The notes beneath the pieces are model-generated. The model ran no database searches. It was not told the DNA's origin and worked only from the letters and a program-made list of their open reading frames with translations. A program made the translations under genes and the position numbers. Below, in pieces: positions 3,401 to 44,852 of a stretch of DNA of 44,852 nucleotides (position 1 is the first letter of the stretch; every line of letters begins with the position of its first letter). Where the stretch lies: positions 1 through 44,852 of the IMG/VR virus record IMGVR_UViG_3300022218_000003; one strand, 5' to 3'. This stretch comes from a virus. Lineage: Duplodnaviria; Caudoviricetes.

Positions 3401-3754
3401 TTACACCTCCACCGTGATGACACGGTCAGTTTTGATTTCGAGAATCTCGATCTCGGTGAGTTGCGCTGCCGGTGACCGGCCCGAGTTCATCGCGCGGCGC
3501 TCGAACGTCGTGCGCACGAGGCGTCCGAGTCCTGCGTCGTCGAGCACGAGCGAGAATACCACGCGCCCGGTCGGGTCGCTGATGCTGCGCTCGACGGCGT
3601 CCTTCGCGGCCTTGAGCGAGCAGTCCAGCGCGTTCTTGACCACGAGGATCAGCGCCACCTTGATCGACTTCGGCTCGCACTCCGGGTACCCGTACTCGTC
3701 GCACTCGAAGTCAGCTTGCTGCACGCGGATGCGTACGATGTTCATGCTTTCCAT
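3401..3754 (-). CDS. Protein with ribosomal bL12 C-terminal-domain-like motif
   Basis: KVALILVVKNALDCSLKAAKDAVE resembles bL12 [30 protein letters not shown] RBS. Confidence 0.6.
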   Translation of the reverse strand: MESMNIVRIRVQQADFECDEYGYPECEPKSIKVALILVVKNALDCSLKAAKDAVERSISDPTGRVVFSLVLDDAGLGRLVRTTFERRAMNSGRSPAAQLTEIEILEIKTDRVITVEV

Positions 3755-3787
3755 TTCGTTTCTCCTCACGTGTGAAAGTACACGATA

Positions 3788-3809
3788 GAGCGCACCCGAA
3801 GATGCGCTC
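3788..3809 (-). terminator. UUCG-capped hairpin (weak terminator or processing/stability element)
   Basis: GAGCGCATC-TTCG-GGTGCGCTC in intergenic space, no clean U tract. Confidence 0.4.
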
Positions 3810-3820
3810 GACTTGCACTC

Positions 3821-4315
3821 TCAGTACTGGTATCCGTGCTCAACCGCGCGGCTCGAAGCGTACCTGTCGGGCACCTGCGCGGTGCTCACAGTGTACTCGC
3901 TGCCGCAGCAGTCGCACGGGCACGAGCGCCCGAGTTCGCTGTTGATGAAGTCCACGCACTCGCCCGCAGCGTACCCGAGCAGCAGCCCGAGCTTGAGCTG
4001 GAGCTGCGCCCGCAGTTCGCGCTTGCGCTGCGCGTCGCGCGTCAGCACGGCCTCGCTCAGGCAGTCCACGATTGCGTCGCGGGCTTCGCGAGCGTACGGT
4101 GCGCCCGGTGCAGCGATCAGCACGTGCGCGTGCAGTTCGTTGTCCTCGCACACGAGCGGCTCCACGAGCACGGTCATCCCGTCCTCGCGAGCGATACCCA
4201 CGAGCGACTCGTAAGCGAACTGCGACTTGCCTGCGCTCACGATCAAGAGCGGCTTGCGCCCTTCGCGGACGTTCACGTAGTCCGCAAACACGGTTGCGAT
4301 GTATTCGTAGTTCAT
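3821..4315 (-). CDS. Early hypothetical protein with GxLLGY motif and Cys cluster
   Basis: GGAGGT RBS, ATG at 4315; LGLLLGY...CPCDCC. Confidence 0.7.
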   Translation of the reverse strand: MNYEYIATVFADYVNVREGRKPLLIVSAGKSQFAYESLVGIAREDGMTVLVEPLVCEDNELHAHVLIAAPGAPYAREARDAIVDCLSEAVLTRDAQRKRELRAQLQLKLGLLLGYAAGECVDFINSELGRSCPCDCCGSEYTVSTAQVPDRYASSRAVEHGYQY

Positions 4316-4422
4316 TTCCAGCACCTCCGGCCAAAGTCGATCACCTGCGCGAGCAGAGCCGCGCCAAAAACCAGCATAAACCATACCGCAGCGACATCCT
4401 GCGCGTTCGTGATTGCTTCCAT
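4312..4422 (-). CDS. Tiny single-TM early protein (36 aa)
   Basis: AGGAGGT RBS; MEAITNAQDVAAVWFMLVFGAALLAQV; ATGA-coupled to next gene. Confidence 0.5.
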   Translation of the reverse strand: MEAITNAQDVAAVWFMLVFGAALLAQVIDFGRRCWK

Positions 4423-4423
4423 C

Positions 4424-4774
4424 TCACACCTCCTGCGCGACGTAGCGCGCGTCCACATTCGCGGGCGGGATCACCACCCAAGTCCACACGTACTCCGGGC
4501 GTCCGTCGTCGAGCACGCCCACGTGCCATTCGCCCAAGCAAAACGCGCGCCATTCGGTCGCGTGCCTGTAGCTGATTTCGCGCGGCTCAGCGCCGTCATA
4601 GTCGCTGATTCCCGCGTCGCAATGCACGGTCACTTCCGCGCGCTCACCGAACCCGCGCGGCTCCGCGCCTGCGTAGTTCGTCATCCGCGCGTCCGTCCAG
4701 CCTGCGCGCTTCACGTGCGCGACCGGCTCCCGGCCTCGCGTGCCCGTATCCGGGTCGAATCTGAATACCTTCAC
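4424..4774 (-). CDS. Early hypothetical protein
   Basis: GGAGGT RBS, GTG start overlapping upstream stop. Confidence 0.7.
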   Translation of the reverse strand: MKVFRFDPDTGTRGREPVAHVKRAGWTDARMTNYAGAEPRGFGERAEVTVHCDAGISDYDGAEPREISYRHATEWRAFCLGEWHVGVLDDGRPEYVWTWVVIPPANVDARYVAQEV

Positions 4775-4929
4775 TTTGCACCTCCCATGCGTGCGTTGCG
4801 TTTCGCGACCACGTGCGCGACGTAGTCCCGGTCAATCGTTCGTGCGTGCGCCCGGGCTTGAATCCCGGCCTTGCGCATCAGCTTCGCGCCCTTGCGGGCG
4901 GCCTTGCGGCGCGACTTCGCGTTTCTCAT
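4771..4929 (-). CDS. Small very basic early protein 3 (52 aa)
   Basis: GGGAG RBS right after hammerhead C; MRNAKSRRKAARKGAKLMRK. Confidence 0.7.
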   Translation of the reverse strand: MRNAKSRRKAARKGAKLMRKAGIQARAHARTIDRDYVAHVVAKRNARMGGAK

Positions 4930-4937
4930 TTCGTGCT

Positions 4938-5006
4938 CCCGTGGTGACTCATCAGGTGCGCGTACCAATCGCGCACAAGCGGGACAATGCCCGCTTTCGT
5001 CGTGGG
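4938..5006 (-). ncRNA. Hammerhead ribozyme C (type II)
   Basis: CCCACGAC-GAAA-GCGGG(CAUUGU)CCCGC-UU/-GUGCGCG(AUUGGUA)CGCGCAC-CUGAUGA-GUC-ACCA-CGGG; predicted cut between 4977 and 4976. Confidence 0.9.
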
Positions 5007-5008
5007 TG

Positions 5009-5263
5009 TCAAACTATTTCGTACGCAGGTACGCTGCGCGTCGCGTCGTCGAGCCACTGGAGCGGCTCCACGCGGGCTTCGCGGGTGCGTCGTGCGCGGG
5101 CTTCCTGCGCGGCTTTCGCGCGGCGCTCGTTCTCGGCGCGCAATGCGATCCAGTTCACGTTCGAGGCTTCGCGGCGCTCGTTCAGACCACGTGCGGCTTC
5201 GCTTGCGAGGCGCTGCACGCGCGGGAGAGACTTGCTACGGACTGTCGTTTTTGTGTCGATCAT
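5009..5263 (-). CDS. Small basic early protein 2 (84 aa, Arg-rich)
   Basis: GGAG RBS after hammerhead B; stop codon 3 nt before hammerhead C. Confidence 0.7.
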   Translation of the reverse strand: MIDTKTTVRSKSLPRVQRLASEAARGLNERREASNVNWIALRAENERRAKAAQEARARRTREARVEPLQWLDDATRSVPAYEIV

Positions 5264-5272
5264 TTTCGTGCT

Positions 5273-5352
5273 CCGGGTGGTTTCTCATCAGGCGCGGGTA
5301 CCATTCCCACGCGACGCGCGCACCCTTGCGGATGCGCACGTTTCGTTCCCGG
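5273..5352 (-). ncRNA. Hammerhead ribozyme B (type II)
   Basis: CCGGG-AAC-GAAA-CGUGCGCAUCC(GCAA)GGGUGCGCGCG-UC/-GCGUGGG(AAUGGUA)CCCGCGC-CUGAUGA-G-AAACCA-CCCGG; predicted cut between 5313 and 5312. Confidence 0.9.
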
Positions 5353-5355
5353 GTG

Positions 5356-5544
5356 TTACGCGGCTTTCTTCGCGGGCTTCGCGGGTGCGAGCGCCTGCGT
5401 GTACCATGCTTCCAAGTCGGCCATTTTCTTCGCGACGGCCTTCGGGAGCGCGACGCCCGCGTTCGTGAGCGCGATAGCAGCCTTGCGGTTTTTCGCACGT
5501 GCGGACAGGATTGCTGAGCGTTCTTCGGTGGTTAATTTCGACAT
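5356..5544 (-). CDS. Small K/A-rich basic early protein 1 (62 aa), probable first gene
   Basis: GGAGA RBS after hammerhead A; ends APAKPAKKAA. Confidence 0.75.
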   Translation of the reverse strand: MSKLTTEERSAILSARAKNRKAAIALTNAGVALPKAVAKKMADLEAWYTQALAPAKPAKKAA

Positions 5545-5559
5545 GGTTTTTCTCCAATT

Positions 5560-5609
5560 TGCGTTTCGTGGTGACTCATCAGGTGCGGGTACCATTCCCG
5601 CACGACGCA
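5560..5609 (-). ncRNA. Hammerhead ribozyme A (type III, minimal stem II)
   Basis: UGCG-UC/-GUGCGGG(AAUGGUA)CCCGCAC-CUGAUGA-G(UCACCA)C-GAAA-CGCA; predicted cut between 5604 and 5603. Confidence 0.85.
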
Positions 5610-5990
5610 GCGCGCCCGTTCAAGAACAGCCCGTGCGGGCGCGCAACATGCCCTGCGCGCTCGTAGCCCGGAATCCCACCGGGCGCGCCTGTATTTTCGT
5701 GGCGTAACGTAGCTTCGCAGCCTTTCGGCCTTCACGGTTTTTCCCGCGCGCAGTCTCGCACCCATAGCGCCTCGGCGCTCGCTCCCGGTCGCGCGGCCCT
5801 TGCGGGTGCCCGTGACCTACCGGCGATTGCTGTACGCTTGCTCGCGAGCGCGGCCCGGGCTTGACGGGCGCGCTCACGTTCCATTGCTGGCGGTGCGTTC
5901 TGTCTCGGTCTATCCGTTTTTCACGGGCCGCCCGGGTGGTTCTGCGGCTCCGGGTGTGCCGCGTCGTCCGGTGGTTGTTGCGCCGAACTT
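5610..5990 (-). ncRNA. Structured non-coding 5' leader of the early transcript
   Basis: Several hairpins incl. CCC-GCAA-GGG, GGCC-GAAA-GGCU, GCCCGG...CCGGGC; no convincing RBS-led ORF. Confidence 0.45.
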
Positions 5991-5996
5991 GGAGCC

Positions 5997-6060
5997 ACCT
6001 TGCCTGAAGCCCGGAGCGCCGTCAAGCGATTTTTGGATTATTTCCGAATTATTTTTGAAA
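5997..6060 (-). promoter_or_regulatory. Host sigma70-type early promoter with UP element
   Basis: TTGACG (6025-6020), 17-bp spacer, CAAGGT (6002-5997), preceded by A/T tracts in an otherwise very GC-rich region. Confidence 0.6.
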
Positions 6061-6149
6061 TCCGAGCAAAATCAAGCGGTTACAGGCCGAAAAAAATGGC
6101 CGCCTACCCTTGCGGCAGCCCGAAATGCGCCGAAAATGCGCAGCGAGAC

Positions 6150-6768
6150 GGCACCCGGGCGGCGCACCCGGGCGGCGCACACACGCGCGCGAGCCGCGCG
6201 ACGCACATGCGGGCGCGAGCCGCGCACACGCACACACGCGCGAGCCGCGCACGCGACGCATGGGCGCACGCGACGCGCACACGCGACGCGCACTCGCGGG
6301 CACCTGCGCGACGCACGTGCAGGCACGCGACGCACGCGCACACGCGCACCCGCAGGCACACGCACGGGCACGCACGCGACGCGCACGCACGGGCGCACGG
6401 CGCGCGCACCTGCGGGCACCTGCGCGACGCACGCACGGGCACACGCACGGGCACCTGCGCGCACCCGGGCAGGCACACGGGCACGCGGGCGCACCCGGGC
6501 ACGCACCCGGGCACCCGTGCGGGCACCTGCGCGGCGCACGTGCGAGCGGGCAAAAACATATCACCGGGCACACGTACGCGCGCGAACGACCACCGCGCAG
6601 GCACACGCGGGCGCACGTGCAGGCACACGCGCAGGCACACGCGACGCGCGCACACACGGGCACGCGCGGGTGCACACGCGGGCACACGTGCGGGCACACG
6701 TGCGCGACGCGCGCGGGCGCGATTAGGGTACCGCACGGGCACTCGCGGGCGCACGCGCGGGCGCGCGA
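6150..6768. repeat. Low-complexity short-repeat array at genome left end (GCAC/GCGC/ACGCG units)
   Basis: Dozens of degenerate GGGCAC, GCACACGCG, GCACCTGC and GCGACGCAC units; T nearly absent on + strand. Confidence 0.85.
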
Positions 6769-7158: not shown

Positions 7159-7258
7159 GGGTAAGGGCACACTCAATAGGGGTAATCATGTGTAGGTAAT
7201 ACCTCTACCGTACACCGAGCAGGTACTCCTGCTGCTACCCCTATAAGTGCCCTTACCC
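7159..7258. repeat. Nested inverted repeat downstream of terminase
   Basis: gggtaagggcac (7159-7170)/gtgcccttaccc (7247-7258) and ataggggta (7176-7184)/tacccctat (7236-7244). Confidence 0.75.
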
Positions 7259-7276
7259 TCTCTGCTGCAACACCCT
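7259..7276 (-). promoter_or_regulatory. Candidate phage RNAP promoter (phiOR-like position)
   Basis: Exact 18-bp motif overlapping the TerL stop codon. Confidence 0.7.
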
Positions 7277-9017
7277 ACCTCTGCCTCGTAAAGCTACGGC
7301 CTGTGCTCCGCTTCGGTGCAGCCGTGAGGCTGGTCTTGCGGTAGCCCATCTTGGCTGCCTTAACGAAATCCGCAAGGGCAGCGTCACGTAGCTTCTTCTC
7401 GGCACGATCAGCCGCGACATCTGTATCACGGGCAATCATCTGGGTGAAGTAGCCTACAGCCTCAGCCAGCACGTCGATCCTGTCGTCCTGACGCAGAGAG
7501 CCACGCTCCCGGGTCAGGTACGCCATTTGGTAGAATCCGTTGTACAGATGCTTCCTCTCACCTGCGTCGGGCAGGGAGTCGAGCTGGTCTTCGACTATAC
7601 GTTTGTCCATGATGAGCCGGTGAGAGTTCATCACGGGTTCGAGCTTGTCAGCGATCCGGGCTTCCTTCTGTCCAGTCACGCGGTACCCGTCAAGGGCGCA
7701 CTTGTGGTGTTTCTGAAGGACCGGGCCGAGCAGGGCGTTGAACATGCCGTCACCGAAGTTGTCCTCGGACCAGACCTCGTTCACGTTCTCCTGCTTGGCG
7801 ATCATCGCCAGAGCCTCAAGGGTGGACTCGTCGTAACCCCCAAGCATCCCGCCCCATCGTCGGACGAAGACCCTACCGTGTAGCATTTTCGCAACACAGA
7901 AGGAGGTCTCGTCCTTGCCGCGACCCGACGGGTCAACGAACATGACAGAGCCTTCATACTTGAGCATCGTCTCAGAGACACTGAGAGGCCCGTAGAAGCG
8001 ATCTCCGGCTAACCCTACGTTGGGTACCGTGAGCATCTGATCTTTGCCTGAGCCGTACGTCAGGCGGTCTGGGGCGATCTCAGGGTCTACATCGAAGACG
8101 ATCAGGTCGCGGAGCTTCAGTGGGTACCTGTTCTCATCGCTGAGGGTCGTGTCGAGCATGAACTGAAGTGCGAAACCAGAGCGTCCATATTCACTCTCAC
8201 GGTCGAGAAGGTCCGATTCGTCGAATCGAGCAGGATCGACTGGTCGTCCCACCAGAGAGGGATCGTCTTGTAACCGTCGTAGTAGACCGGGAGATAGGCG
8301 GTTTTCGCCGTACTTGAGCATGAGGTCACGATCAGGGTACCTCGCGGGCCAGATGCGAACGCGGTAGCCGCGCTCCTCGAAGCCTGCATAAATGGTTTGG
8401 ATGGACTGAGGCGTACCCAGACCGACGGACTGGCCGCCCGGTACAAGGATAGCGCCACCCATCTCGCGGGCGCGCTGGTCGAGTTTCTCTCGCTTACCTT
8501 CAGTGTCGGAGTTGTTCGGGACCTCGATGTCATCGAAGACGACCGTCGTGGCTCGACCACCTGTCATCTGTCCAGTAACACCCACGGCTCTCACCGATGG
8601 TGCCTGTGCAGGTTTGGCAGGTCCCACGTCGAACGCCAGCACTGAGTCACGCTGTCCGTCCTTCGTGCGGGCCTTCAGCCAGCTAAGCAACGGGATCGTC
8701 TCGATGAGCTGCTTGGTGAACGTGGAGAACTCAGTGGCCTTGTACTCCGAAGCGGAGACGACCATGACCTTCTCTTGGGGGTTCCTCATCAGCAGCCACA
8801 GCACGAAGGCCGCTGTGATCCACGACTTGCCCACTCCACGGAACGCCATGACGATGCGCTTCCGGGGGCCGTGCTGTAGCCAGTCAGCCATTTCGTACTG
8901 AGCGGGTGTCGGGTCTGGTAGCCCAAGCTGACGCCAGAGCCACCACAGGAACATCTTGAAGTCGTCGTGCATCTTGCGGTGCAGCTTCGACTGGACCCAT
9001 ACAGGGTACTTGTTCAT
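7275..9017 (-). CDS. terL: Terminase large subunit (T7 gp19-like)
   Basis: AFRGVGKSWIT Walker A, VVFDDIEVP Walker B, VDPSGRGKDET nuclease motif, QDDRIDVLA. Confidence 0.97.
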   Translation of the reverse strand: MNKYPVWVQSKLHRKMHDDFKMFLWWLWRQLGLPDPTPAQYEMADWLQHGPRKRIVMAFRGVGKSWITAAFVLWLLMRNPQEKVMVVSASEYKATEFSTFTKQLIETIPLLSWLKARTKDGQRDSVLAFDVGPAKPAQAPSVRAVGVTGQMTGGRATTVVFDDIEVPNNSDTEGKREKLDQRAREMGGAILVPGGQSVGLGTPQSIQTIYAGFEERGYRVRIWPARYPDRDLMLKYGENRLSPGLLRRLQDDPSLVGRPVDPARFDESDLLDRESEYGRSGFALQFMLDTTLSDENRYPLKLRDLIVFDVDPEIAPDRLTYGSGKDQMLTVPNVGLAGDRFYGPLSVSETMLKYEGSVMFVDPSGRGKDETSFCVAKMLHGRVFVRRWGGMLGGYDESTLEALAMIAKQENVNEVWSEDNFGDGMFNALLGPVLQKHHKCALDGYRVTGQKEARIADKLEPVMNSHRLIMDKRIVEDQLDSLPDAGERKHLYNGFYQMAYLTRERGSLRQDDRIDVLAEAVGYFTQMIARDTDVAADRAEKKLRDAALADFVKAAKMGYRKTSLTAAPKRSTGRSFTRQR

Positions 9018-11604: not shown

Positions 11605-12579
11605 TCAGTAAACGAGTCTGTCGTTCGCGTAGAACAGGATGTTAGAGAATGTGTAGACCGGGCCGGGGAACTCGATTGGCCTGATCGCGGTGAGGGTGGA
11701 TATACCATTTTCGGTATGTATGACCATGCCGACTTCCAGCTTCTCGGGCAGCCCTTGATCCTTGTACTCGATCTCTGGGAACACGGAAGCAGGGCCGACG
11801 CCCTTCACGTGGAAGGGATGGTCAGTCGATGCTTTGATGACCGTGCCGTCCTCGAACTGGAGGGCGACCATCGGTCGGTTGAGTCGGACGAGAACTTCGT
11901 CCACTGGCTCTGCCACGTTGACGCCGTTGCGGAAGACGAGAATCTCGTCGCCCTCGCGGACATCCTTGATGGGCAGCTTCATGCCATTCGCCATAGTGAT
12001 GAGCGTGTCAGGCGTGAAGCAGCAGAGCGGACAGGCGTCGTGCCAGCGTCGAGCGGACCACGTAGCGCCACTCGTAGTTTGCAGCAGGTTGCCGCCAGTC
12101 GCCGCGTCGTATGACCGGAAGTAGCCGATGATAGTCTCAGCGCCACCGGCAGTCGAGCTGACCGTGTCCACGATTCGGAACGTGACGTTGGCCGTGACGT
12201 TGCGCCGGACGTTGTTGTAGCCGCCACCGAGAGAGTCCCAGTCACCGAGACTGCCGCCCGTGCGGGTCCACATGATCCACACGTCGGAGGCCGAGCCTGC
12301 CGTGAGCCACGTCCACGAATTAGTGACCGAGCCTGTGCTGCTGTACTCGTACTCAAGGCCGGTCGTGTAGAACGCACAGCCAGAGTAGCAGGGGTTGTCG
12401 AGCCGAGAGTTGGTACGCCCGTCAGCCCGCATGTTGGTGGTGGGAGCCACCGTGCCGACTTCCTTCCAAGTACCAGCCACGTTGATCTTGACGGACGAGG
12501 GTGTTTTCCACACCCCTGCCACGTTGATCTTAACTGTGGGGTCTTTCCATACGCCCGCGACGTTAATCTTGGTTGCCAT
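11605..12579 (-). CDS. Tail-fibre tip/adhesin-like protein with C-terminal Hint (intein-like) domain
   Basis: 3x KINVAG(V/T)WK at N-terminus; CFTPDTLITMANG (block A), STDHPF (block B), VYTF...FYAN (blocks F/G) but no terminal HN. Confidence 0.8.
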   Translation of the reverse strand: MATKINVAGVWKDPTVKINVAGVWKTPSSVKINVAGTWKEVGTVAPTTNMRADGRTNSRLDNPCYSGCAFYTTGLEYEYSSTGSVTNSWTWLTAGSASDVWIMWTRTGGSLGDWDSLGGGYNNVRRNVTANVTFRIVDTVSSTAGGAETIIGYFRSYDAATGGNLLQTTSGATWSARRWHDACPLCCFTPDTLITMANGMKLPIKDVREGDEILVFRNGVNVAEPVDEVLVRLNRPMVALQFEDGTVIKASTDHPFHVKGVGPASVFPEIEYKDQGLPEKLEVGMVIHTENGISTLTAIRPIEFPGPVYTFSNILFYANDRLVY

Positions 12580-41403: not shown

Positions 41404-43860
41404 TTAGGCGAAGAAGAAGTCGGCATCACGCACCTCCTCGATGTTGTACTCGCCAGCTTCAGGCGGCTGGTCGATGTCCGGCCATGCCTTACCCGGCAGG
41501 CGCAGCAGGCTCTCACGGTAGAACTCCACGAGTACCTCCTGCGAGTACAGGTTGATGAACTCATCACGCAGGGCGTAGTGCAGCTCATCCACGTCGCACG
41601 CATGGACACCGAACGAGTCATGGATGACAGCGAACGAGGTTGTCACCCCGGCGTCAGCCATGCGGTTCACCGTCATCATCAGGTGCGTCGCATCGAGCGA
41701 GTGCACGTAGTTGGGTGCGACTGCGCTTGACTGCTTCGCCCCGTCGATCTTGTCGCCCTCGAACGTGAGCGTCAGGAACATGGGCTGCCCCTGAAACAAG
41801 ACCTTGATGCGCTTGCCCTTCGACTTCAGGTACGGTTGCAGTACCCGGAACCCGAGCGGCGTAGTCCAGCCCGTCGGGATGTCCTGCTTGCTGACATGCT
41901 TGGACACATGCTTCAGCCAGTCCATCGCTTCGGCTGCCCGGTCTACCACCGAGCGGATGCTTGCTTCAACGATGGGTGCGAGGAACGCAGCCGCCTCCCA
42001 GTCAGGCGTACCCGGAAGGTAGTCTCCTTCCTGCCGCTTCCTGATCTCGTCGAGTATCTGCTGCCTGATCCCGGCGCTCGTCACCGAGTAGGCGAACGTC
42101 ATGCACGGGCGCTTAACGATCTTGCGATCCACCTTGCCCTGCCACACCTTAGCCAGCGGCTCAGCGCTCGCCTTCAGCGCATCGTTCACCACGTACAGTA
42201 CCTCGGTGTAGATGTCGTTGGGCAGCGGAGTGTTGGTCAGGTTCACCGCCTCCGCTCCACGTTGGTCACGCAGCATGGCGCTGAAGTGCTGGATGCCCGA
42301 GCACGACCCGTCCATTGCGATAGGCAGGTGCGACACGTGAGCTGCGCCCTCCATCTTGAACCCGGCGTACTCGAAGCAGGCTGCGAGTGCACCCCACGGC
42401 TCGTCGGCCTCAGTCCAGAAGCGCTGCCCGTCGAGCGGAGACAGGGCGCTGTCGAGGATGCGATCCTCGTGCTCCATCACCCACTCGACACGCTGGTCGA
42501 AGGACACCTTGTCGAACCCGAACAGGTTGGCGAGCTGCACGCACAGCCAGAACCCACCGTTCTCTCCGAGTGCCTTACCGTTGGCGAACTCAAGCAGGGC
42601 CTTCGATGTGTCGTCCGACTGAGGCGACAGCTCCGCACTCATCGGGTACACCCGGCCCCTGAAGTCCAGCGAGTGAGGGAACCAGATGCGTTCCTCATCG
42701 CGCACTTCCTGTGCCAGTGCGAGCTTCGTCGCAAGCGCCACCCGTTTGCTTCGGTTGGCTGCGTTGTACCCGTGCACCGCACGTGCCTCGTTCTTCCACC
42801 GACGCAGCGCATCCTTCTGTGCCTCGTCGTAGTCCTCGTACGCCACGGTGCCACGCTCAGGGATACCGAGCGGGACGGGCGGGAGCGGCAGGTCGTCAGC
42901 CTCCGGCAGCACACCCATGTCCATGTCCGAGCGCCATGCCTCAAGCATGACATCGAGCACGCCCTTGTTGATGCGCCACTCCGTAGATTGGATGCTGTTC
43001 ACCGCATCGTACACCTGCGTCATGTCCGTGGAGAACAGCTCATCGAGCAGCCCCTCGGTCACCTTGCGGAACCCCGCACCCCGCAGGATGGGCTGCTTCA
43101 AGCGCTCCGTCAGGTACCCACCGGAGAGCGGCGTCGTCCACGGGCGAGGCGGGCACACCATCGGCTTGTTCACCGGCTCGTCGCCCTCGATCTGGGCGTG
43201 CCGCAAGCGCAGCCGTTCGAGTGCATCCTCCGTCATGGTGATGATCTTCTTCACCTGACTGCCACCCTTGTCCGGGTCGCTCACTGTCTTCAGCTCAGCC
43301 AGCCCGGACTCCTGCACGAACACCTCCATCAGCTTCAGGCCGAGCTTCAGTTTCTCCTGCTCAGTCCAGCCCATGCGCTTGACACCTGCCACATCCGCAG
43401 CCTTTCGCATGATCTTGCGACGGGTGCTGGCACGTGACCAGCGCTTCGCCTTCATGCTCATGCTGTTGGCGAGGTGCGGCTCAGCCTGCTCCAGCTCCTC
43501 GTACCTGTAGTGCTCCTCGATCAGGTTGGCAATCTTCATCGCCGTCCGTGTCACGTTCGCCTCGTTGTACGCAGCCGACACCGTGAGCTTGGCCGTGATG
43601 TACGCCACCGCATCCGGGTTCATCTCCGTCAGCCAGTGGATACCGAGCGGCACCTGCGACGGGTGCGACTCGCCGTCCTCCAGCATCCGCACCTGCTCGT
43701 TGATCCACGGGATCATTGCCTTCATCGCCACATACACCAGCCCCAGTCCTGCCGTGCTGTCACCTGCACCCTGCTGCTCGAACTTCTTGTGGTACTTGCG
43801 GATGCCCTCGTCGAGCTGCGTCAGCTCCCGCATTTCCTGTCTCTCTGTAAGGTTACTCAT
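41404..43860 (-). CDS. Single-subunit T7-type RNA polymerase (gp1-like)
   Basis: DFRGRVYP, DGSCSGIQH, RKIVKRPCMTFAYS, IHDSFG, C-terminal FFFA. Confidence 0.99.
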   Translation of the reverse strand: MSNLTERQEMRELTQLDEGIRKYHKKFEQQGAGDSTAGLGLVYVAMKAMIPWINEQVRMLEDGESHPSQVPLGIHWLTEMNPDAVAYITAKLTVSAAYNEANVTRTAMKIANLIEEHYRYEELEQAEPHLANSMSMKAKRWSRASTRRKIMRKAADVAGVKRMGWTEQEKLKLGLKLMEVFVQESGLAELKTVSDPDKGGSQVKKIITMTEDALERLRLRHAQIEGDEPVNKPMVCPPRPWTTPLSGGYLTERLKQPILRGAGFRKVTEGLLDELFSTDMTQVYDAVNSIQSTEWRINKGVLDVMLEAWRSDMDMGVLPEADDLPLPPVPLGIPERGTVAYEDYDEAQKDALRRWKNEARAVHGYNAANRSKRVALATKLALAQEVRDEERIWFPHSLDFRGRVYPMSAELSPQSDDTSKALLEFANGKALGENGGFWLCVQLANLFGFDKVSFDQRVEWVMEHEDRILDSALSPLDGQRFWTEADEPWGALAACFEYAGFKMEGAAHVSHLPIAMDGSCSGIQHFSAMLRDQRGAEAVNLTNTPLPNDIYTEVLYVVNDALKASAEPLAKVWQGKVDRKIVKRPCMTFAYSVTSAGIRQQILDEIRKRQEGDYLPGTPDWEAAAFLAPIVEASIRSVVDRAAEAMDWLKHVSKHVSKQDIPTGWTTPLGFRVLQPYLKSKGKRIKVLFQGQPMFLTLTFEGDKIDGAKQSSAVAPNYVHSLDATHLMMTVNRMADAGVTTSFAVIHDSFGVHACDVDELHYALRDEFINLYSQEVLVEFYRESLLRLPGKAWPDIDQPPEAGEYNIEEVRDADFFFA

Positions 43861-43931
43861 TCAGTATGACTCCTTTAGGTTGAGTCTGTTAATGATAATC
43901 TCTAAAGGGAACACTTATAGTGCCCTGCCCT

Positions 43932-43949
43932 TCTCTGCTGCAATACCCT
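43932..43949 (-). promoter_or_regulatory. Candidate phage RNAP promoter upstream of RNAP gene
   Basis: AGGGTATTGCAGCAGAGA, preserved in both alleles although nearby sequence differs. Confidence 0.7.
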
Positions 43950-44004
43950 GTTCATCCATCCAGTGTTTCGGGAGTTGCTTCCTCCCTTCTGGGGTGTCAC
44001 CCCC

Positions 44005-44226
44005 TCACCCTGCCTTCCCGATCCACTCCCGCAGCGACGGCGACCACTCGACATCCGAGTAGAAGCAGAACAGCGTGCGCTCCACCCACCCACCGTCCTT
44101 GCGGGCGACCTCGTACTTGGCCGTGAGCTGCGTGCTCAGCAGGTCTACCACGGTGCACACGTGCTGCTCGTGCTCACCCTCACCAGTGTACACCCGGATC
44201 AGGTCGCCCACCTCCGGGCGGCTCAT
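44005..44226 (-). CDS. Early hypothetical protein (allele of 264-494)
   Basis: Homologous to 264-494. Confidence 0.75.
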   Translation of the reverse strand: MSRPEVGDLIRVYTGEGEHEQHVCTVVDLLSTQLTAKYEVARKDGGWVERTLFCFYSDVEWSPSLREWIGKAG

Positions 44227-44486
44227 GGTGCGTGCCTCGCAAGGTACTCGTCGAACTCCGGCGTGCTGCTCACCAGCTCACCGAACCGCAGCACCTCAAT
44301 GGCGTACGTGTCGCCCATGTCCCACCCACCGAACGTCATGGGTGACTGGGCCGCCACCATCCACGTGCTGTACGGTGCACGCGGAGACTTGCTTGGCTGG
44401 TTCACCTTGAGCACGTGCCAAGTCCAGTCGCCTGCCTTGTACGTGGCGTGCGGTGCCTTCATCTCTGCTGTCTTTCTCAGGCTCAT
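44223..44486 (-). CDS. Allele-specific early hypothetical protein (Trp-rich)
   Basis: ATGA-coupled on both sides; absent from the 1-860 copy. Confidence 0.75.
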   Translation of the reverse strand: MSLRKTAEMKAPHATYKAGDWTWHVLKVNQPSKSPRAPYSTWMVAAQSPMTFGGWDMGDTYAIEVLRFGELVSSTPEFDEYLARHAP

Positions 44487-44725
44487 AGCCATGTCCCTCC
44501 GATGTCACGCAGCGTAGCGTTCATGTCACGTGCCCGCTCCCGAGCGTCGTCTTCCTCGATCTCATCCCGGTAGTACGCCTCGTTGTCCTGCTCGATCTCG
44601 TACTCCAAGTCCTCCATCTCGGAGATGATCTCGTCGAGCTGCATCTCCAAGTCCGTGCGCAGGTCGGTCAGCTCAGCCAGCCTCTCCTCGCACGCCTCGA
44701 TGTTCTGCATCCTCCACTGTCTCAT
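44483..44725 (-). CDS. Very acidic early protein (allele of 491-733)
   Basis: Near-identical to 491-733. Confidence 0.8.
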   Translation of the reverse strand: MRQWRMQNIEACEERLAELTDLRTDLEMQLDEIISEMEDLEYEIEQDNEAYYRDEIEEDDARERARDMNATLRDIGGTWL

Positions 44726-44852
44726 GTCAGTCTCCTTCTCAGTTCCTCAGCCACCTCACGCAGGGACATGAAGCCATGCTCATCCCACCCCACGTTCCCG
44801 TCCGTGCGCTCCAGCTCACGGCAGTCATTGACGAGCGCCTCGAACAGCTCGT

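Follow-up and report, generated by a model that had tools for sequence, protein, structure and literature searches.

Hammerhead ribozymes and RNase III-like hairpins at the early gene junctions of a T7-like phage and its relatives

The virus record IMGVR_UViG_3300022218_000003 (44,852 bases, completeness rating 100%), analysed here over its full length and referred to as the window, carries three hammerhead ribozyme motifs on its minus strand, one at each of the first three junctions in the early operon of a T7-like phage. A scan against PHROGs named a T7-type RNA polymerase, a gp2.5-like single-stranded DNA-binding protein (SSB), a primase/helicase and a DNA polymerase, as well as portal, capsid, tail tube and internal virion proteins and a terminase, all on the minus strand. 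A single-subunit RNA polymerase with T7-type replication and virion genes on one strand identifies an autographivirus, in agreement with the first-pass annotation of this DNA as T7-like, and the closest cultured phages share 50% identity at the terminase and 39% at the polymerase. None of the 18 small early open reading frames (ORFs) scanned against PHROGs had a family. No integrase was named by PHROGs among the 55 ORFs, nor did tblastn with six autographivirus integrases give a match at an E-value (E) of 0.01.

Reading along the minus strand, a sigma70-type promoter-like site (5997–6025; TTGACG, a spacer of 17 nucleotides (nt) and CAAGGT, with an A/T-rich tract upstream) predicts a transcription start near 5990. 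It is followed by a leader of about 380 nt (5610–5990), poorly conserved in length and sequence and without an Rfam match, and then by hammerhead A (5560–5609), ORF1 (5356–5544), hammerhead B (5273–5352), ORF2 (5009–5263) and hammerhead C (4938–5006). Next come four overlapping or abutting ORFs (4929–4771, 4774–4424, 4422–4312 and 4315–3821; together 3821–4929), which would share one RNA piece and between which we found no hammerhead and no covariance-model match. The spacer after them holds an RNase III-like hairpin (3773–3823), ahead of ORF7 (3401–3754). The ends of the window overlap imperfectly (490–860 versus 44482–44852 at 94%; 1–485 versus 43731–44217 at 85%), so that the early operon spans about 5990 to the polymerase start near 130, where a cut-off variant copy of that start (about 130–1) stands for the complete polymerase gene at 41404–43860 (minus strand), the end of the operon.

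A descriptor search covering all three hammerhead permutations on both strands of the whole window returned exactly three hammerheads, the same minus-strand elements, with the same cut sites, that the first-pass annotation had picked out. Hammerhead A is of type III with a GUC triplet, stems I, II and III of 7, 2 and 5 base pairs (bp) and a predicted cut at 5604/5603. Hammerheads B and C are of type II: B has a GUC triplet, a stem I of 7 bp, a proximal stem II of 1 bp, a stem III of 12 bp and a predicted cut at 5313/5312, and C has a CUU triplet, the corresponding stems of 7, 3 and 6 bp and a predicted cut at 4977/4976. All three contain CUGAUGA, GAAA, an NUH triplet and the G10.1-C11.1 and A15.1-U16.1 pairs, and their 7-bp stems I are as originally quoted (GUGCGGG/CCCGCAC, GCGUGGG/CCCGCGC and GUGCGCG/CGCGCAC). 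The spacing of 3–4 nt from the preceding stop codon, first given for both B and C, holds for B (3 nt) but not for C (2 nt). Nor do these two simply end at the next ribosome-binding site, as had been described: the distal stem II of B (CCGGG/CCCGG) overlies part of the Shine-Dalgarno sequence, and that of C overlies its GGG. In each copy the UGGU of loop I is complementary to an ACCA 3' of the core, which in A is loop II, predicting a 4-bp pseudoknot that is conserved in related loci (L014, L343 and L345); the CUU triplet and layout of C recur in L014. Hammerhead B folds as drawn (z -3.86). In dinucleotide shuffles of region 4700–6100, the strict setting gave no match in 5,000 and the loose setting a single match in 6 of 5,000; with the whole window shuffled, the loose setting gave one or two matches in 6 of 200 shuffles and three in none. 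The three elements are real hammerhead motifs, and their predicted self-cleavage is highly probable.

To place the array we compared related loci. A terminase search (terminase large subunit, 7275–9017, minus strand, the clade marker) among viral contigs gave 15 loci, six of them with two to six hammerheads; seven end at most 1,640 bases from the terminase, one type III copy in L011 was missed at the first search setting, and L015 is distant. An alignment search with ORF1 gave 22 metagenome loci and six viral loci. With L337 (the window) and the copies or re-fetches L351, L352, L354, L357 and L359–L361 dropped, 25 early regions, the window included, were compared, among them the close pairs L005/L009, L338/L341 and L347/L348. 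The clade is monophyletic on the terminase tree (100/100) and hammerheads are conserved at its early junctions, so the array does recur in related genomes, where the first-pass annotation had proposed to look for it. Type III hammerheads occur in 19 loci, always single and first (the parse of L353 is doubtful). The 41 later copies all belong to type II, and stem III of 37 of them has a folding energy of -8 kcal/mol or lower. Of 20 early regions examined, 9 have a similar promoter-like site upstream of the first device. It stands 207–562 nt ahead of that device in the window, L002, L004, L014, L339, L342, L349 and L350, and is also present in L348, where only hairpins were found; a stock consensus promoter scan did not list the TTGACG-17-CAAGGT site.

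Beyond the clade we retrieved 77 distant T7-like loci, 31 with at least 3 kb beyond the terminase and 12 reaching the polymerase, and found arrays in none of the 31 (one stray match lay within a terminase gene). One of eight cultured autographivirus early regions has an array, that of the temperate Caulobacter phage S2B (L366, MN857473, minus strand), with hammerhead motifs at 6541–6484, 4634–4568 and 4048–3988 at early junctions. Its type III copy stays below the Rfam cut-off (46.6 bits, E 4e-7), and its two type I copies were detected by the relaxed descriptor only; a long imperfect hairpin occurs in two copies (about 6035–5975 and 5185–5122) at other junctions. Two to nine hammerheads were found in 47 of 256 loci, most of which had been fetched by hammerhead-like patterns and some of which are duplicates, so arrays are not special to T7-like phages. 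The viral contigs L059, L153, L180, L182, L140 and L073, for instance, carry arrays of four to nine type II hammerheads and had no T7-like marker match in the stretch examined. Core variants with an extra base were seen at L342 (cut 1072), L344 (cut 6930), L366:4048 and L345 (cut 1185), in the form of CUGACGA-U before G10.1 (three cases) and CUGAACGA. Other searches for close relatives returned little: blastn of window 4800–6100 against cultured phages gave chance matches of 29–36 nt only, GTDB genomes held no close prophage (best 45%), and the RNA polymerase as query among viral contigs gave no confirmed locus.

Relatives that have no hammerhead at a given junction often have a long imperfect hairpin there. 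Across the 25 early regions, 13 have hammerheads only, eight have both devices (the window included) and four have hairpins only, where 'only' refers to the sequence at hand, many of the loci being fragments of 1–5 kb. The exchange is visible in front of single gene families. ORF1 (n = 23) is preceded by a type III hammerhead in 11 loci, a type II in seven, hairpin B in three and neither model in two; a family of 36-amino-acid membrane genes (n = 9, sorted by BLAST, motif-based sorting having given false members) by a hammerhead in three, a hairpin in four and neither in two; and the ORF7 family (n = 4) by a type II hammerhead in L002, a hairpin in the window and neither in two. The closest comparison is between L338 and L341, which are identical at 403 of 419 bases upstream (96%) and 25 of 28 downstream of the exchanged segment. 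From the stop codon of ORF1 to the Shine-Dalgarno sequence that follows, only 24 of 69 positions agree, with a type II hammerhead in L338 and hairpin A in L341. After ORF1, stem III of the L012 hammerhead and the upper stem of the L344 hairpin are nearly the same hairpin, and both devices would cut 1–3 nt 3' of such a hairpin. On the terminase tree the hairpin user L011 groups with L002 (100/99) and L344 with L004/L005/L009 (90/95), in different branches beside loci with hammerheads only; hairpin use is thus not limited to one branch, although recombination of the early region could yield the same picture. L011, L342 and L344 have a hammerhead at the first junction and hairpins at later ones.

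The hairpin of the window (3823–3773; predicted cut at 3785/3784, after UAU) has a 10-bp lower stem, a 4x5 internal loop (UC, UAU), a 9-bp upper stem and a UUCG loop, and folds with z -3.26. Intercistronic, about two helical turns long and with an asymmetric 4x5 loop, it has the geometry of a T7-type RNase III signal. It belongs with a family, A, of which 16 aligned members show two-sided changes in 12 of 20 pairs with 94% of cells paired; covariation exceeds that in 500 of 500 shuffles and lies far above all slid controls, the shuffle test being inflated by kinship. A covariance model, R1, was built from the hairpins of 16 relatives, without the window or T7 sequence, and gave five matches with E up to 2 over 52,852 bases. 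In the window these are the hairpin itself (32.7 bits, E 3e-7), stem III of hammerhead B (5339–5314, 18.6 bits), whose 12 bp resemble the upper stem of the hairpins, and a weak match in the terminase gene; in T7 they are 5859–5887 (18.1 bits), between genes 1 and 1.1, and 864–890 (15.0 bits) only. We take the two T7 hairpins to be R1.1 and R0.3, cut after UAU at 5887 and 890, though the records carry no such annotation. R1.1 has been placed between genes 1 and 1.1, with a 4/5 internal loop (PMC6121014). The UC/UAU loop is common to the T7 and clade hairpins, as is U-G pairing at position 8 (12 of 16 relatives). The upper stem of the window hairpin ends AUC/GGU, as at T7 864–890, and near its terminal loop an A-U pair is followed by U-G, as in R0.3 and R1.1, while the G-C pairs near the internal loop are possible antideterminants. 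A second family, B (six copies), has the same overall length, and its model R2 recovers its own seeds only. Neither family has an Rfam counterpart, and R1 found nothing in the 31 distant T7-like loci or the eight cultured-phage regions (best E 0.46). Models R1 and R2 replaced a generic long-hairpin descriptor that was too permissive in G+C-rich DNA and matched inside genes. Two stretches of L011 (6739–6793 and 7212–7264), considered at one point as decayed hammerheads, proved to be family B hairpins. Hairpin B in L011 (6739–6815) and L358 (2069–2146) is followed by a core-like (C/A)UGAYGAGGA serving as ribosome-binding site, and L341 retains GAGGAU of the L338 core; judged by sequence, these may be remains of replaced hammerheads.

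The use of either device at the same junctions in relatives makes it likely that the two do one job. We consider it probable that the hammerheads at the first three early-operon junctions do the work of the T7 RNase III sites, the two devices being functionally equivalent. In this scheme host RNA polymerase would start near 5990, and hammerhead A would remove a non-coding leader of about 390 nt. Hammerheads B and C, to judge by their structures, would cut between genes, giving two RNAs with one gene each (291 and 336 nt) and, as third product, an RNA of about 1,190 nt; the monocistronic pieces originally proposed would apply to the first two products but not to the third, which carries four ORFs. 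Cleavage would be co-transcriptional. After a type II cut, the upstream mRNA would end in stem III as its 3' hairpin, and the downstream mRNA would begin with stem I, a 5' hairpin carrying a 5'-OH. Stem II would then be the only helix joining the products, covering the next Shine-Dalgarno sequence, which cutting and release would free, although this is a weaker step. Host RNase III would cut at 3785/3784, again leaving a 3' hairpin of this kind. Selection most likely favours the outcome, whichever device achieves it: cleavage that leaves the new 3' end protected by a hairpin and lies immediately before a fresh ribosome-binding site. Self-processing of the early message, as the first-pass annotation proposed, is the best reading of the sequence, given that the motifs lie on the coding strand at gene junctions of the early operon, behind a conserved promoter-like site, and are conserved in the clade.

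Several observations weigh against this scheme. First, no Rfam model matches in the window at its gathering score: in the model search suggested at the outset, Hammerhead_II (RF02276, gathering 37) detects B (29.7 bits) and A (21.2 bits) by E-value and leaves C unmatched, while five copies in relatives pass 37 bits. Second, with a method that does not model pseudoknots, the core of A is drawn into an extended stem I in the minimum-energy fold (z -0.49), and the stability of C is insignificant (z -0.98); U at position 17, as in C, also makes a slower triplet. Third, the T7 matches to R1 are partial, the upper stem begins with G-C in the clade hairpins and with A-U in T7, and a proximal box containing G-C pairs can prevent cleavage by Escherichia coli RNase III (PMC1540722). 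Lastly, most junctions farther downstream in the window have neither device, and the fragmentary loci limit the count of device use given above. Two public RNA runs, available as contigs only and covering small parts of the region, favour neither outcome: none of their pieces terminates at a predicted cut, one 151-nt piece (depth 2) extends across cut B by 25 letters, and because the promoter and the upstream repeats are covered as well, DNA carry-over is possible.

The type II copies of the clade bear on how cutting might be coupled to translation. Of the 41, 35 end in CUGAYGA-GG with a start codon 8–12 nt later (GG type), and 34 of these 35 have no Shine-Dalgarno 4-mer (GGAG, GAGG or AGGA) wholly 3' of stem II, so that the ribosome-binding site consists of the GA of the core and the GG of stem II. 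Loop I of these copies is predicted to pair with the 5' flank rather than the 3' tail: at least three Watson-Crick pairs form in 31 of 32 distinct copies (mean 3.69 versus 2.90 +/- 0.14; 0 of 10,000 permutations), and in a fixed register 21 of 24 pair versus 7.2 +/- 2.1 (maximum 15 in 20,000), both permutation tests being inflated by shared ancestry. Six different partner triplets are used, and shifting the register drops the count to 14, 5 or fewer. A 3'-side pseudoknot was rejected for GG-type copies, 7,069 of 10,000 permutations reaching the observed value. The other six type II copies, B and C of the window included, keep the 3' ACCA pseudoknot and have a distal helix of 3–5 bp over the Shine-Dalgarno sequence (-5.1 to -10.8 kcal/mol). 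The upstream stop lies at most 11 nt from GAAA in 28 of the 31 type II copies with a called upstream ORF.

These features permit two stronger readings, both of which we hold only tentatively. In the first, each early junction would be a slot that takes an RNase III site or a hammerhead around the same 3'-protecting hairpin, switching among near-identical strains; loop I would pair with the end of the upstream gene, the core would hide the next ribosome-binding site, and a ribosome-aided cut would switch on the next gene, making a natural cleavage-gated translation cascade during genome entry. The second makes gated translation the main job and stability secondary: the ribozyme would bury the next Shine-Dalgarno sequence, the terminating ribosome would strip off the cut product, and genes would come on in order. 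The missing 4-mers 3' of stem II, the distal helix of the other six copies and the proximity of the upstream stop all speak for it. However, CUGAUGAG is Shine-Dalgarno-like regardless, so the overlap may be compaction; a stem II of 1–4 bp may not resist the 30S subunit; and at most hairpin-type junctions the site lies outside the hairpin.

RNase E prefers 5'-monophosphate ends, and the first-pass annotation had read the array as self-processing that does without host RNase III and leaves 5'-OH ends, possibly less susceptible to the RNase E activity that 5'-monophosphates stimulate. Hammerhead chemistry does yield a 5'-OH and a 2',3'-cyclic phosphate (PMC6765202), and the first junction has a hammerhead in 19 loci, some of which use hairpins later (L011, L342 and L344). 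As the purpose of the array, however, a 5'-OH end seems rather unlikely: the exchange partner would leave a 5'-phosphate, hairpins only are found in 4 of the 25 loci, and the window itself keeps a hairpin at 3823–3773. Contrary to what had been supposed, the transcript is probably not independent of RNase III either, given that hairpin in its next spacer and the relatives' use of such hairpins at hammerhead junctions.

Should the hairpins be uncut stabilisers, pause sites or weak terminators, the exchange would say nothing about cutting. A UUUU follows the upper stem in some copies, the G-C pairs close to the loop are possible antideterminants, and an Rfam family is lacking. We regard this as unlikely, since the U run forms part of a lower stem that is conserved and covaries, UAUU or GCUU stands in place of a U tract in several copies, the loop bases and geometry match those of R0.3 and R1.1, and termination at as many as four early junctions would leave little transcription for the polymerase gene. 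That the ribozymes are mainly recombination joints for early gene cassettes, or ends for circular-mRNA ligation, is very improbable: gene order and content between devices vary widely, close-strain DNA contigs join at devices (e.g. 3820 to 5354 and 4941 to 5568) and a gene between two hammerheads would carry 5'-OH and cyclic-phosphate ends, but the short side of these joins is only 30–32 letters, at repeats where assembly effects are possible, recombination needs neither a catalytic core nor pseudoknot covariation, RNase III ends are not ligatable in that way, and a search for spliced or circular products of such arrays found none (Perreault 2011, PMC3088659).

Each of the two devices has known counterparts. 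The first-pass annotation had assumed that only isolated hammerheads were known near phage genes, whereas Perreault 2011 describes arrays flanking prophage genes and proposes processing into mRNAs of gene or operon length. According to the same paper, triple arrays of Clostridium scindens, Azorhizobium caulinodans and Agrobacterium tumefaciens cleave in vitro, one of them also in E. coli; the haloviruses HF1/HF2 have an early hammerhead; and a hammerhead with a 1-bp stem II and a 3'-tail pseudoknot cleaves at more than 1.2 per min, the pseudoknot being needed for fast cleavage. The window has what defines such clusters, at least two hammerheads on the coding strand that bracket single genes or short gene blocks, and resembles them in having several hammerheads at junctions of one phage transcript, a short stem II and a pseudoknot between loop I and the 3' tail. 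The prophage or integrase context of those clusters is common but not strict, whereas the window is T7-like with no integrase found, and in the portion of their Dataset S1 searched LUZ24 and PaP3 are the only podoviruses named. The clade further differs in its fixed order of type III then type II, in the exchange with RNase III-like hairpins, in the 5' flank as pseudoknot partner in most relatives, and in the overlap of Shine-Dalgarno sequence and core. Against the RF02276 and RF00008 families of Rfam, the window copies share the core, topology and UGG/CCA pseudoknot of the RF02276 consensus and score below gathering.

On the T7 side, the RNase III signals R0.3 to R1.3 cut the early polycistronic mRNA between genes, as is predicted for the window, and the window hairpin and family A resemble them in the UC/UAU loop, the upper stem of 9–10 bp and the U-G pairing close to the terminal loop. 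When RNase III makes a single cut, the 3' hairpin left behind is protective (PMC1540722), and such a hairpin would remain in the window as in T7. Unlike in T7, the first three cuts of the window are predicted to be made by ribozymes, leaving 5'-OH and cyclic-phosphate ends, and the upper stems are richer in G-C. In RiboJ-type synthetic insulators, a type III hammerhead placed downstream of the promoter and upstream of the ribosome-binding site removes the leader and leaves a 5'-OH hairpin end. Hammerhead A has a similar layout; unlike RiboJ it is natural, stabilised by a predicted pseudoknot and followed by type II copies between genes. A 2019 review calls the roles of bacterial and phage self-cleaving ribozymes largely elusive, polycistron processing being merely suggested (PMC6765202); other hammerhead permutations are covered elsewhere (PMC10085705), and self-cleavage aids translation in eukaryotic RNA viruses (PMC13725137). 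In the literature searched, which left most subscription papers outside its coverage, we found no printed T7-like array or hammerhead/RNase III exchange. To what that literature shows, the clade adds the strain-level swap with T7-type sites in a T7-like lineage and the 5'-flank pseudoknot with an embedded ribosome-binding site. The former links ribozymes to the textbook processing of T7 early mRNA and offers L338 and L341 as a two-allele comparison; the early array of the cultured phage S2B makes the question testable in infection; and the compact type II ribozymes, which combine a 5' pseudoknot with a ribosome-binding site of their own, could serve as parts for dividing synthetic operons.

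As for the genes themselves, ORF1 (62 amino acids) belongs to a clade-wide family, with 112 homologous proteins among 4,868 candidates. No PHROG, Pfam or usable atlas lead points to its function, and a search for an ocr or ArdA homologue found none. ORF2 (84 amino acids) has relatives within the clade. ORF7 (117 amino acids) shows weak similarity to the ribosomal L7/L12 C-terminal domain, under the Pfam cut-off (E 0.0097 for window 3401–3754, 0.00023 for L002:4366–4674); its L009 homologue shows none. At the window ends, 1–860 and 43731–44852 hold two variant copies (85–94% identical) of the stretch before the polymerase, one with an extra ORF (44492–44223), which suggests mixed strains in the assembly. 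Just 5' of the early promoter, at about 6160–6720, lie degenerate GTGCGC-type tandem repeats (self matches of 73–78%), perhaps a genome-end region. The stretch between terminase and early promoter contains a tRNA-Ile(GAT) or tRNA-Thr(TGT) gene in 7 of 15 loci scanned (L004, L006, L012, L014, L342, L344 and L348), and no tRNA gene was found in the matching stretch of the window. A GGGCACTWWA(A/G)-type motif recurs on the minus strand at 7252, 6809, 196 and 43925, before the polymerase gene and after the terminase, and is a candidate phage-polymerase promoter. Lastly, a late protein (11605–12579, minus strand) has weak similarity to a Hint/Vint domain (E about 0.003–0.006).

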